64,000 bases of DNA, taken from the NCBI RefSeq assembly GCF_003018115.1, contig NZ_CP027457.1, one strand, 5' to 3'. The position numbers are program-made. Below are positions 3,001 through 6,000 of the stretch, piece after piece (position 1 is the first letter of the stretch; every line of letters starts with the position of its first letter). This DNA comes from Escherichia coli (GTDB taxonomy: Bacteria > Pseudomonadota > Gammaproteobacteria > Enterobacterales > Enterobacteriaceae).

Positions 3001-6000
3001 GCAGCCAGTATCAGTAATGATTTTATTATTGCCATAAGACCAGGAACCCTTGCACATCCAGTATGGATGGTTAAATGCTCCCTGAGAATCCAGCCACTCG
3101 ATAAACTGTGCAGTCGTCCAATTTCCTGTTGTTGTGCTTACTGACCCACCGAAGGCACGGCAGGCACCAATATTTTTCGTAAAGGTGTCTTTGCCAGGGA
3201 TATCCGCACCGTTCTGATCTTTCTGCAGACGTTTCTCAGCATTGTCATTGGCTGTTTTTACTGCCTTTGGCGTTGCCGCCAGCGTTTCAGACGTGCTGTT
3301 GGTCGCGCTGCTTAGTTGGACTATCCCTTTCTGTGCTGTCGTTGCATCCTGTGCTGTGTATTTCCCGTTAGCCAGGTCATACGCGGCCTTAACTGCTTTT
3401 GGCGTTGCCGCCAGTGACTCGGAAGTGCTGTTGGTCGCACTGCTGAGCTGTACTATCCCCTTTTTCGTCGTGCTCGCATCCTCAAGCGCCACGGCGGATG
3501 CAATATCCTCTGCCCGTTTTGCCGCTGTCTCAGCGCGCGTTGCTGCAGATTCCGCCGTACTTTTGCTCTGAGCTGCTGCCGTCGCACTACCAGCTGCCTC
3601 TGTCGCCTTCGTGGATGCCGTCGTGGCGCTGCTCTTCGCTGCTGACGCTTGTCTGGTCGCCTCATCTTTTGAAGCAGACGCAGATGATGCCGATGACGCC
3701 GCCGAACTGGCTGACGATGCGGCAGCCGTTTTTGAGGATTCTGCGCTGGTTTCCGACGCTTTCGCGTTCGTTTCGGATGTCTTCGCTGCGGAAGCAGAAC
3801 TCGCTGCTGCGCTGGCCTGTTCAGTGGCTTCGCCAGCCTTCGTTGTGGCTGTTGAAGCAGACGATGCGGCACTTTCTGCCGACTTTCCGGCAGCGGTGGC
3901 ACTGGCTGAGGCCTGCCCGGCACTTGTTGACGCGGCGCTGGCAGATGATGCAGCCGCTGTTTTTGAGTCTGCTGCTGCGGAGGCACTCTGTTCCGCTGCC
4001 GTTTCAGAAGACTTAGCGTTCGTCTCGGACGTTTTTGCCGCTTTCGCGGAATTGCCTGCCGCCGTTGCCGAGGAAGCGGAACTACTGGCGCTCGAGGCTG
4101 CGCTCGTTTCTGATGATTTTGCCGCCTCTTTTGAAGCCGACGCATCCCTGGCTGAGGAGGCAGCTTCTGACGCTTTCGTGGTCGCGGTGGATGCAGAAGT
4201 GGCTGCTGATTGTTGTGACGCTGCAGCATTCGTTTCTGACGTTTTCGCGGCACTGGCACTGGTAGCTGCCGCGCTTTTTGAGGACTCTGCAGCAGCAGCA
4301 CTTTTCGATGCTTCAGTGGCCTTTGTTGATGCCGTTCCTGCGCTGGAAGATGCTGACTGAGCCGACGACGCGGCCTGTCCGGCTGACGTGCTGGCTGCGC
4401 GTGCTGAGCCTGCAGCATCAGTCGCACGGGTTGCCGCCTCACTGGCAGATGTGCTGGCATCACTGGCTGACTTCTTTGCGGCTGCCGTGTTCTGTGCCAC
4501 CACGGACGCGTTACGCGCCACCTCTTCCACCATCAGCTCAAAACGGCGCAGTGCCTCCGGACGGGCATCATCCTCCGTCATGGCACCGAGAAAATCATTC
4601 AGCGTACCGGGTCGGGAATCTTCATACACTGTGATGGTCCCGGCATGTGACGGCGGGAATCCTTCCACCAACAGAATAACGCTGTACTGACCGTACTCAA
4701 CGTCCATACTGTAACGCCCGGCTTCATCCGGATTTTCTGAGGCCAGCGTGTTCACCACCACCGTGGTACTGTTACGTTTTGCTTTCAGCTGGATTGTGCA
4801 GTTCTGTACCGGTTTTCCTGTGCCGTCTTTCAGTACACCTGAAATCTTTACTGCCATATTCACCCCACAAAAAAGCCCGCCTGAACCGGCGGGCTGTCAT
4901 AACACTGTGTTACCTGGCTAATCAGAATTTATAACCAACACCCACGATGAACCCGTCAGTGCGCCAGTCACCACTGCCGGAGCCTTCATAAGCGACATCA
5001 ACGGCCACGGATTCGGTCGGGTTAAACTGCACGCCAGCTCCCCACGCCAGAGACGTGTTGCTGTGGCGACCGTCATCACTTCCGGTCAGCACATCGTGCG
5101 TTTTCCCCTTGTTGTCAGTTACGCGGATATAATCCCCGGAGAAAGTCGACACACGGCTGTAAGCCATACCCGCCATCGCATACGCGCTGAACCATTCATT
5201 CACGCGCACAGACGGCCCCGCCATCACGCTGAACCAGCGATTACGCACGGAATCCTCATGCCAGCGGGTATCGCTGTAATGCGTTTTTTGCTCATCTTCA
5301 GCGTTGGCATAACTGAATGACGTAATCAGCCCCAGCGTGTCCGTAAACTCATAACGGTATTTCACGTTAATCCCGTTCAGATTATCGCTGCCGGGAGCGT
5401 TCGTACGGGCATGAAGATACCCTGCGCTCAGTGTGGCCTGCTGCTCAGACGCCCATGCAGGCGCACCGGATACGGCCAGACAGATGGCTGCGGACAAAAT
5501 GGCTGCACAAACTTTACGCATAATTACCTCTCGCTTTTCTGCAATAAAAAAGGCGCCATTTCTGGCGCCCGTATATGGGTTATAAAATTCAGCTGATACT
5601 GATGCCTGCGGTGGCTTTCTTCATCACCACAACCAGCAAATCGCTGATACTTGCTGTGGGATACCAGTCATTTACCAGCCATGCTGACACCGAAAACTCC
5701 AGCGTCATGTGGCCGTGACCAGCAGGCATATCAATAACACCACTGTAAATCAGCGTATTATCCAGCGCGGTACGGTTATAAATTTCAGCACCATTTTTCT
5801 TCACTATCAGGCGGCATGAGGAGTAAATATCAGTATGCTCTCTCTCATGTTTAGCACCGCTGAATGCCACCGCCGGAATAACAATCTGCCGGTCAAACGG
5901 CTGATCGTCATAAATCCTGACGGTAATGGTCCCTGATGGCCACCGCTCCGGTGCCCGGGAGTCCCGCGGGAAAGCCTTACCCACTGTTTTGACAATATCG

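Follow-up and report, generated by a model that had tools for sequence, protein, structure and literature searches.

The window analyzed here, a 64,000-nucleotide stretch of Escherichia coli DNA (contig NZ_CP027457.1), carries a side tail fibre gene, stf, on the minus strand at 1831..4857, which encodes 1008 aa from an ATG at position 4857. The ORF listing starts the gene at a GTG at 4863, whereas a RefSeq relative of 99.1% identity, labeled "prophage tail fiber N-terminal domain-containing protein", starts at the same ATG. Upstream of stf lie a Lom-like ORF (4922..5521) and a J-like ORF (5589..9068), and downstream, also on the minus strand, tfa (1247..1831), which encodes a tail fibre assembly chaperone (phrog_105, E 2.4e-101). 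The order J - lom - stf - tfa of the window is also the annotated one in lambda and in the closest RefSeq relative.

All domains of the product are encoded on the minus strand. The N-terminal collar domain, assigned to tail-tip docking (aa 1-94, 4576..4857), matches chain Ta of PDB 9e7m, which is lambda Stf 1-94, with E 1.2e-51, and PF08400 spans aa 1-134 (E 1.4e-71), extending into the first heptads of the next region. This region is a putative coiled-coil rod (aa ~102-460, 3478..4554) of ~51 heptads in a single unbroken register, within which composition and register delimit an Ala/Ser/Thr tract of 49 heptads at aa ~116-460 (3478..4512). Distal to the rod, PF03406 (Phage_fiber_2), a hinge or junction module, matches two stretches (E 9.5e-38): the first repeat lies at aa 462-502 (3352..3474) and the second, identified by Pfam and as a DNA direct repeat, at aa ~506-546 (3220..3342). 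The repeats are 44 aa each, their DNA (3244-3350 and 3376-3482) is 77% identical, and their copy number among relatives ranges from 0 to 3. They are followed by a middle domain homologous to the tail fibre protein S of phage Mu (aa 539-723, 2689..3243; PDB 8ju3, E 6.5e-86 for the whole sequence and i-Evalue 1.6e-69 for this stretch) and by a putative receptor-binding needle at the C-terminus (aa 794-1008, 1834..2478), a homologue of the T4 gp37 tip (PDB 2xgf, E 1.1e-86), where His-x-His repeats are found. C-terminal Pfam matches are to Collar (PF07484) and to Phage_fiber (PF03335), the latter under its cut-off. Judged from sequence, stf is a lambda-type side tail fibre gene, given its PF08400 N-terminal domain, its gene order, its PF03406 repeats and a distal region served by Tfa.

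The original prediction placed a low-complexity tract inside stf at 3250..4500. This interval covers most of the Ala/Ser/Thr tract, but it also takes in the two Phage_fiber_2 repeats, which are a different element.

Heptad organization of the Ala/Ser/Thr tract

Ala, Ser and Thr make up 75% of the tract overall and 67-83% of each 30-aa block, Pro is absent from its 345 aa, Gly occurs only 8 times, and large hydrophobic residues are almost missing. The 49 heptads follow one another without interruption, with the consensus S-A-[S/T]-A-A-A-[S/T]. Residue identity at lags 7, 14, ... 77 gave z = 6.9-10.1 against 500 shuffles, as opposed to z <= ~2 at lags other than multiples of 7. The degenerate Ala/Ser/Thr-rich repeat recognized earlier in stf is thus real, with a period of 7 aa or 21 nt, and the peptide quoted from it is present. 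In the inner heptads positions a and d are typically Ala and position g is typically Ser; the register table counts Ser in 37 of 50 cases at position 0 (g) and Ala in 35 of 50 at position 1 (a) and in 46 of 49 at position 4 (d), with no stutter over the 49 heptads. Such an Ala/Ser core is weakly hydrophobic. At the ends of the rod, the first heptads have Leu, Phe or Val at a and d, and the last ones Ile, Val or Leu. Among 50 distinct tracts of the same length, variable columns amount to 10% at g, 16% at a and 16% at d, as against 43% at b, 33% at c, 49% at e and 47% at f, and such a contrast between conserved g, a and d and the remaining, variable positions is characteristic of a folded coiled coil. 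The description as low complexity undersells a region conserved in this way.

No Pfam family covers the tract in a scan of stf, and a PDB sequence search with the tract alone gave zero matches at E <= 10. An AF2 model of aa 90-500, run as a monomer without alignment, predicts helix over ~90% of the query with a mean pLDDT of 72.8. The predicted helices occupy residues 8-160, 173-281, 291-300 and 305-406 of the 411-aa query, and the monomer helix is folded back at breaks of low confidence (query residues 162-173 and 283-304). Packing of Ala at the core positions is known from the Braun lipoprotein of E. coli, Lpp-56, an alanine-zipper three-stranded coiled coil that tolerates Ala at core a and d. 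In Lpp the Ala-zipper segment is short and lies among Leu/Ile/Val layers, whereas Stf of the window has Ala at nearly every a and d for 49 heptads; the PDB search with the tract (E <= 10) gave no sequence relationship to Lpp.

Homologous regions have been characterized experimentally. In the collagen-like fibres EPclA-D of E. coli prophages, PfN (PF08400) precedes a PCoil domain with the same Ala/Ser-rich heptad, Ala-x-x-Ala/Ser-x-x-Ser, which varies in length by multiples of seven residues (Ghosh et al. 2012, PLoS One, PMC3368898). The homologous PCoil is helical by CD and a trimer by SEC-MALLS, and a Tm of only ~49-52 C was reported for this shorter homologue (PMC3368898). It measures about 110 aa and ~16 nm and is followed by a collagen triple helix (PMC3368898), whereas the coil of the window is ~359 aa long and is followed by the PF03406 (Pf2) repeats and Mu/T4-type distal domains. 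Likewise, residues 102-393 of lambda Stf form a trimeric proximal coiled coil according to cryo-EM, cryo-ET and AlphaFold3, and lambda tomograms show rod density (Yu et al. 2025, Sci Adv, PMC12617516). In side tail fibres of the lambda type, this published rod (Ghosh 2012, PMC3368898; Yu 2025, PMC12617516) follows the N-terminal domain that binds the tail and precedes the distal modules for receptor binding. By analogy with these homologues and from the prediction, Stf of the window would also be trimeric.

Tract length and exchange of modules among relatives

Tract length was taken as the distance between the EEVARNA anchor and the GIVQL junction in IMG/VR loci, the best 80 of at least 595, a sample biased to close N-terminal matches; a protein search with the N-terminal domain returned mostly truncated fragments from draft assemblies, unusable for tract length. 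Relatives fall into classes of 244, 251 (lambda), 342, 356 (window) and 461 aa, all congruent modulo 7, and two further junction types have tracts of 222 and 236 aa. The 356 aa of the window are shared exactly by 53 of the 62 relatives with the same junction, or by 54 of 63 when locus L022 is counted, whose tract carries a Tyr substitution and which is left out of the former figure. The total protein length of the same-junction relatives ranges from 791 to 1176 aa, since their distal modules differ. Alignment of the relatives shows that length variants are few and separate events. One of them, L076, carries a recent 105-aa tandem duplication whose 315-nt copies are identical at 310 of 315 positions; none of the best-ranked matches in E. 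coli genomes spans the duplication junction in a single contiguous stretch. Of 5,426 complete E. coli genomes, which hold ~18,000 stf loci, 3,495 have the internal junction of the window type and 97 that of the lambda type, so the long form predominates in this species. Across the whole family, a generic heptad detector applied to 50%-identity representatives gave shaft lengths of ~30 to ~395 aa, with boundaries too crude for the modulo-7 test, from which these values were left out. That indels occur throughout in multiples of 7 aa points to selection on the coiled-coil register and not to free drift of length, and the tract is stable in length rather than hypervariable.

Lambda Stf resembles the product of the window in its position within J-lom-stf-tfa, in its matching N-terminal domain, in the succession of PF08400 domain, tract, PF03406 repeats and distal domains, and in its Ala/Ser/Thr heptad tract, whose aligned parts are ~86% identical at the DNA level and which is followed by the same fibre repeat. 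It differs in its tract of 251 aa, which makes that of the window longer by 15 heptads. The window further has two Pf2 repeats and a Mu-S-like middle domain, the latter not evident in the lambda sequence read. The 105-aa (15-heptad) block missing from lambda-type fibres lies at ~aa 310-438 (approximately 3543..3930, minus strand); alignment of stf with L051 and L070 puts the gap at ~aa 310-414, the repeats leaving its exact site ambiguous.

Many E. coli matches are annotated stfR with a neighboring tfaR or tfaQ. StfR, from the cryptic prophage Rac of E. coli K-12, belongs to the same family and has the same architecture of N-terminal domain plus tract; alignment with fibres of the StfR type covers only ~70% of the window gene, in four pieces, owing to differences in the distal modules. 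In 25 of the 80 loci, recombination breakpoints between the relative and stf of the window lie within the tract. SETNA-type motifs and the Pf2 repeats are the sites where natural junctions concentrate. The heptad tract also occurs behind an unrelated N-terminus in the SSU5-like phage Cyrano (OV696614, CYRAN_21) and in the 110-kb plasmid p20170902CC-1. There the same tract (~87% DNA identity, query nt 548-1475), with the same C-terminal cap and Pf2 junction, is joined to an unrelated N-terminal attachment domain, annotated as a homologue of the P1 S-protein, and to unrelated distal domains; since the ends are unrelated and the tract is common, the tract is a portable module.

DNA repetition and alternative reading frames

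The underlying DNA had been described as so repetitive that every alternative frame on both strands is open, and the tract as prone to slippage and recombination. Tandem Repeats Finder reported nothing beyond a trivial 25-nt array with a 9-nt period, the best of the dispersed copies span 45 nt and are 62-76% identical, and no exact repeat in the 1,035-nt tract exceeds 12 nt, which is what chance gives (12.1 +/- 1.3 in codon-order shuffles); the DNA is thus not repetitive in the sense proposed. Compared with itself, the DNA is identical at a fraction of 0.44 for lags of 21 nt and its multiples, at 0.36 for the remaining in-frame lags and at 0.22 for those out of frame. Efficient recombination by RecA needs ~25 nt, and a 12-nt repeat is well below this length. 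As no repeat array beyond the trivial one is present, slippage is rejected. A 105-aa (315-nt) periodicity inside the tract of the window was not found either, lag 315 being no better than other multiples of 21, and the extra 105-aa block is therefore not a recent duplicate.

The four alternative ORFs listed in the original prediction are all present, but no more than three of the five alternative frames are open. Within the tract, the sense +1 frame is free of stops and antisense frames 1 and 2 contain 2 each, while 12 stops occur in sense +2 and 25 in the codon-aligned antisense frame, the latter due to TCA Ser codons. In two of the three open frames the stop counts match those of codon-order shuffles; the third has 2 stops against 10.8 expected, a deficit explained by the avoidance of NCT|A codon pairs throughout the window (O/E 0.35), and likewise of CTA (O/E 0.29). 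With codon-order shuffles, synonymous resampling and a codon-pair bias control, amino-acid composition and the general avoidance of CTA account for the open frames; repetition is not their cause, and the idea that they need a special explanation was rejected. The sense +1 ORF at 3453..4463 (minus strand, 336 aa, Arg/Pro/Gln-rich) is a by-product of a GCN/TCN/ACN codon composition.

The candidate for a real overlapping gene is the antisense ORF at 3611..4360 (plus strand, 249 aa), which shares its third codon positions with stf and is the counterpart of lambda orf206b. In Pfam and PHROG scans of the alternative ORFs the sole match was to phrog_560, of unknown function, which this ORF matches over its full length with E 1e-118; its counterpart is annotated in the lambda reference record and its frame is almost stop-free in 79 relatives. 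Nevertheless, the 2 stops of this frame equal the expectation of codon shuffles (1.8 +/- 1.2); a stop in it would require Tyr or Gln/His codons in stf, nearly missing from the tract, and among the 79 relatives the stops range from 0 to 3, so that the ORF boundaries are not conserved. In addition, no Pfam family scores above threshold for this ORF, and PGAP leaves it uncalled in the closest RefSeq relative. We judge the ORF to be a compositional by-product, a real gene at this position being exceedingly improbable, and we read phrog_560 as a family assembled from calls of such shadow ORFs.

Discussion

The Ala/Ser/Thr tract of stf is very probably the proximal coiled-coil shaft of the side tail fibre. 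The register, the conservation, the indels in multiples of 7 and the breakpoints are observed directly, the helicity of this particular tract is predicted by the model, and its trimeric rod function is suggested by analogy. A tract of this type is already known, as heptads, a trimeric coiled coil and multiple-of-seven lengths have been published for homologues (PMC3368898, PMC12617516).

In this reading the core of the shaft is packed by small residues (Ala in positions a and d, Ser in g), and conventional hydrophobic heptads cap both ends. The N-terminal collar domain would clamp the fibre to the tail tip, and the shaft would act as a stiff spacer, holding the distal hinge and the Mu-S-like and T4-gp37-like modules tens of nanometres from the collar. 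At ~0.148 nm per residue, the additional 105 aa would make the shaft of the window about 15.5 nm longer than that of lambda. The 21-nt periodicity of the DNA and the open alternative frames are best seen as a passive outcome of encoding a protein repeat. Shaft length would evolve by whole heptads only, through duplication or deletion between short similar motifs, and the DNA of the shaft would serve as a homology handle for swaps of distal modules, given how well its sequence is conserved across the several lambdoid prophages of a genome.

The low hydrophobicity could instead indicate an intrinsically disordered Ser/Thr/Ala linker, a flexible and possibly modified tether in place of a folded rod, as a tract that is three-quarters Ala, Ser and Thr, almost devoid of large hydrophobic residues and matched by neither a Pfam family nor a PDB sequence might suggest. 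A disordered tether does not, however, account for a strict heptad phase kept in one register across 345 aa, for conservation confined to g, a and d, or for the absence of Pro and the scarcity of Gly, and both the helical AF2 prediction and the experiments on homologues, with a helical and trimeric PCoil (PMC3368898) and rod density in lambda (PMC12617516), argue for a folded shaft; we regard disorder as highly improbable. Another possibility is that suggested originally, namely a contingency locus whose slippage- or recombination-prone DNA frequently generates fibre-length or antigenic variants in a population. Relatives do vary in tract length, from 244 to 461 aa, so that neither the constant length nor the lack of periodicity that had been set down as speaking against the prediction was found, the periodicity being significant at protein lags that are multiples of 7. 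L076 carries a recent near-exact 315-nt tandem duplication, which would itself be unstable under RecA, relative L072 has a frameshift inside the tract, and many proteins from draft assemblies stop within it, although assembly collapse across prophage copies is the more likely cause of the latter. The variation is nevertheless rare. The length of the window is retained by 53 of 62 relatives (54 of 63 with L022) despite extensive turnover of distal modules, its junction recurs in most complete E. coli genomes (3,495 of 5,426), no indel departs from a multiple of 7 aa, and the DNA, with its trivial array and a longest exact repeat at chance level, gives slippage nothing to act on. Neither a tandem array of near-identical DNA units in the tract nor copy-number differences among otherwise near-identical relatives, as expected of slippage-type repeats, were found, and nothing supports antigenic variation arising from the tract. 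What stands of the earlier proposal is the degenerate repeat, the length differences among relatives and recombination, the last in the form of the breakpoints within the tract; a contingency locus is very unlikely, and the variation of the tract consists of evolutionary length change and module exchange.

Returning to the coiled-coil shaft, its two largest length changes are equal in size, the 105-aa block that separates lambda-type from window-type tracts and the independent 105-aa duplication in L076, while other events measure 14 and 112 aa. We give little credence to the idea that shaft length is quantised in steps of 15 heptads (251, 356 and 461 aa), coincidence being the likelier explanation for two events of equal size. 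A step of fifteen heptads, about 15.5 nm, comes close to a full superhelical turn. If such a quantum were real, the hinge and distal domains could keep their rotational phase relative to the tail, and reach could be tuned to the surface layers of the host, making the tract a natural "ruler" of the fibre.

The value of the tract as a discovery is small, and its practical value lies in annotation, in the recognition of spurious genes and in engineering. Regions of this kind are better labeled as the coiled-coil shaft of the fibre than as low complexity, and the antisense and +1 ORFs that they generate, such as lambda orf206b and phrog_560, are probably spurious genes. For the design of chimeric Stf fibres, it should be considered that the shaft common in E. 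coli is 15 heptads longer than that of lambda.

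Genomic setting and domain organization of Stf

A tail module of a lambdoid prophage lies on the minus strand of the window, where the ORF listing gives J-like and Lom-like genes (5589..9068 and 4922..5521) and, together with a PHROG match, tfa (1247..1831). The stf gene (1831..4857, minus strand) encodes 1008 aa from an ATG, with a GTG at 4863 listed by the ORF tool; its closest relative in a complete genome, 99.1% identical, is annotated from the same ATG, from which the domain numbering is counted. The host is E. coli, and since a 387-aa ORF that we take to be the integrase adjoins tRNA-Arg(tct) (44935..45011; region 43756..45011) and the sfm fimbrial operon lies beyond it, with sfmD (47435..50044) 99.9% identical to E. 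coli chromosomes, this arrangement assigns the prophage to argU, the DLP12-type attachment site of E. coli. Two further features lie past tfa (162..467, minus, and 524..1192, plus). One is a SAM-methyltransferase-like gene (phrog_2132), whose counterpart in a relative bears the annotation class I SAM-dependent methyltransferase. The other, a remnant of 101 aa matching phrog_2341 and annotated in the closest RefSeq relative as a partial tfa pseudogene, belongs to a second gene for tail-fibre assembly and may be left over from an earlier exchange of fibre modules.

Stf begins with an N-terminal domain (aa 1-134; Pfam PF08400, E 1.4e-71), within which aa 1-94 correspond to the lambda Stf collar domain of known structure (PDB 9e7m, E 1.2e-51). 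The Ala/Ser/Thr-rich tract, delimited by composition and heptad register, extends over aa ~116-460 (3478..4512) and is followed by two Phage_fiber_2 repeats (PF03406; aa 462-502 and ~506-546), a Mu protein-S-like domain (aa 539-723; PDB 8ju3) and a T4 gp37-tip-like needle (aa 794-1008; PDB 2xgf, E 1.1e-86). A Pfam scan of Stf found no family covering the tract, and a PDB sequence search with it returned no match even at E <= 10. Both Phage_fiber_2 modules, present in 0-3 copies among 81 related fibres, are encoded by a 107-nt direct repeat (3244..3350 and 3376..3482; 132-nt spacing, 77% identical).

A coiled-coil shaft

The degenerate repeat reported by the original prediction is real at the protein level. 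Over aa ~120-450, Ala, Ser and Thr make up 67-83% of each block of 30 aa, and the 345-aa core comprises 128 Ala, 90 Ser and 40 Thr, with no Pro or aromatic residue. Residue identity reaches 0.38-0.45 at lags of 7, 14 and so on up to 77 (z = 6.9-10.1, 500 shuffles), and at lags that are not multiples of 7 z never rises above ~2. Set out seven residues to a row, the tract forms 49 consecutive heptads in a single register with consensus S-A-[S/T]-A-A-A-[S/T], position 0 being Ser in 37/50 rows, position 1 Ala in 35/50 and position 4 Ala in 46/49. The heptads directly upstream and the last ones (IASAVAL) keep this register with Leu, Phe, Val or Ile at the same positions, and consequently the coil spans aa ~102-460, about 51 heptads whose a and d positions are Ala and whose g is Ser, with a hydrophobic cap at each end. 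Variable columns, counted over 50 distinct tracts of equal length, are a fraction of 0.10 at g and 0.16 at both a and d, versus 0.43, 0.33, 0.49 and 0.47 at b, c, e and f. Modelled as a monomer with AlphaFold2, aa 90-500 are nearly all helix (8-160, 173-281, 291-300 and 305-406 in query numbering; mean pLDDT 72.8). The unbroken register, the position-specific constraint and the helical model point to a folded coiled coil. [quoted passage not shown] 2025, PMC12617516); together with Ghosh et al. (2012, PMC3368898), who showed the homologous PCoil of E. coli prophage fibres to be helical and trimeric and to vary in length by multiples of seven, this settles the tract as a structural element already described in the literature.

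Tract DNA and its open reading frames

The original prediction took the underlying DNA to be repetitive as well. Tandem Repeats Finder detected one trivial 25-nt array of 9-nt period, and exact repeats in the 1,035 nt reach at most 12 nt, as against 12.1 +/- 1.3 in codon-order shuffles. Dispersed copies are at best 45 nt long and 62-76% identical, spaced mostly by multiples of 21 nt, and mean self-identity is 0.44 at lags that are multiples of 21 nt, 0.36 at the remaining in-frame lags and 0.22 at lags out of frame. None of this amounts to repetitive DNA of the kind proposed.

The four alternative ORFs cited by the original prediction are all in the ORF listing, and its statement that every alternative frame is open holds for three of the five frames: within the tract no stop occurs in sense +1 and two occur in each of antisense frames 1 and 2, but sense +2 has 12 and the codon-aligned antisense frame 25, each a TCA serine codon. 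Nor is repetition the cause of this openness. Shuffling codon order gives 0.9 expected stops in sense +1 and 1.8 in antisense frame 1, close to those seen, and 10.8 in antisense frame 2 versus the two observed. Stops in the latter arise where an NCT codon meets a following A, a junction depleted window-wide (O/E 0.35 in 20 long ORFs). Over the whole window CTAG occurs 13 times against 249 expected (O/E 0.05), with CTA at 0.29 and TAG at ~0.3; this scarcity is the usual enterobacterial bias, and it materially affects which antisense frames remain open. The open frames are thus a product of composition and ordinary CTA/TAG avoidance, and they are nearly stop-free in 79 relatives as well, with stop numbers varying over 0-3, 0-6 and 0-3.

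One of these frames carries a 249-aa ORF (3611..4360, plus strand) that aligns end to end with phrog_560, of "unknown function" (E 1e-118, 249/249 positions), and the equivalent lambda ORF bears the name orf206b in the lambda entry (2004..2624). The ORF shares its wobble positions with stf, no Pfam family scores above threshold, and the PGAP annotation of the closest relative makes no call for its counterpart. We read it as a shadow ORF, and phrog_560 as a whole seems to be made up of shadow-ORF miscalls that stem from tract composition.

Shaft length among relatives

Tract length, taken as the distance between the EEVxRNA anchor and the first junction with a fibre repeat, was measured in 80 IMG/VR loci, the best 80 of at least 595, which share 95-100% identity with the window in the N-terminal domain. 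The anticipated length polymorphism is present. By the rule finally adopted, a GIVQL-type junction is present in 62 loci, and 53 of these measure 356 aa like the window, with total protein lengths of 791-1176 aa; five have the lambda length of 251 aa, and 244, 342 and 461 aa occur once each. A further locus, L022, measures 343 aa because the rule cuts at a Tyr substitution, and counting it with the 356-aa class gives 54/63. All differences in this class are multiples of 7 aa (-112, -105, -14, +105), and two other junction classes, of 222 and 236 aa, lie 14 apart. Alignment shows how the variants arose, with a 105-aa tandem duplication in L076 (315-nt copies, 310/315 identical), a deletion between two SETNA motifs in L077 and the loss of two heptads in L042. 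In another relative, L072 (IMGVR_UViG_2548876530_000016), an apparent frameshift at stf aa ~297 inside the tract, either a real pseudogene or a sequencing error, leads through ~48 codons of the open +1 frame to a 345-aa product.

Lambda Stf lacks a diverged 105-aa block carried by the window and most E. coli relatives. Junction-specific searches found the window-type junction in 3,495/5,426 complete E. coli genomes and the lambda type in 97, 96 of them at >= 99% identity, with the laboratory strains J53 and BLR(DE3) among them. For the L076 duplication junction, the best-ranked matches in the same genomes were all two-piece and non-contiguous. The lengths 251, 356 and 461 aa might suggest steps of 15 heptads, which would be mildly novel; with two events behind them such quantisation is very improbable, and coincidence is the probable reading. 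Among 50%-identity representatives of PF08400 an in-register small-core heptad segment after the N-domain is almost universal, from ~30 to ~395 aa long, the class of the window standing near the top.

Recombination and module exchange

Sequence resembling stf is found in 5,177/5,426 genomes at a median of three places per genome, so that homologous partners are plentiful. Collinearity of the 5' alignment with the stf of the window ends inside the tract in 25/80 relatives (15 at aa 280, where a KTSETNA motif lies; six at aa 307-311; one each at aa 212, 255, 329 and 375) and at the Phage_fiber_2 repeats (aa 489-553) in 49/80, 33 of the 80 losing it at aa 494, between two repeat copies. Megablast matches in genomes end at nt 356 (the tract start), 845-848, 911, 1050, 1316, 1478 and 1598. 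In phage Cyrano and a 110-kb plasmid, the tract, at ~87% DNA identity, stands behind an unrelated, P1-S-like N-terminus. These breakpoints, the varying repeat copies and the exchanged N-terminus indicate that the tract and adjoining Phage_fiber_2 repeats are sites of fibre-module exchange. The protein matches listed for the N-terminal domain (P0001-P0120; 108-217 aa, most named 'partial') seem to be pieces that stop within the tract where a contig ends, which suggests that short-read assemblies routinely break there, as several prophages per genome share sequence.

The tract is therefore recombination-prone in an evolutionary sense, although length variants are rare, heptad-quantised and not slippage-driven; of the proposed antigenic variation or high-frequency length switching no supporting sign was found. 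Indels of whole heptads would be the only ones to survive, since any other would put the N-terminal collar and the distal trimer out of register. With 105 extra residues at ~0.148 nm each, the shaft would be ~15.5 nm longer than that of lambda. By analogy with homologues, the three chains would form a parallel alpha-helical coiled-coil rod, which would hold the hinge and the receptor-binding modules off the tail-tip collar and thereby speed adsorption.
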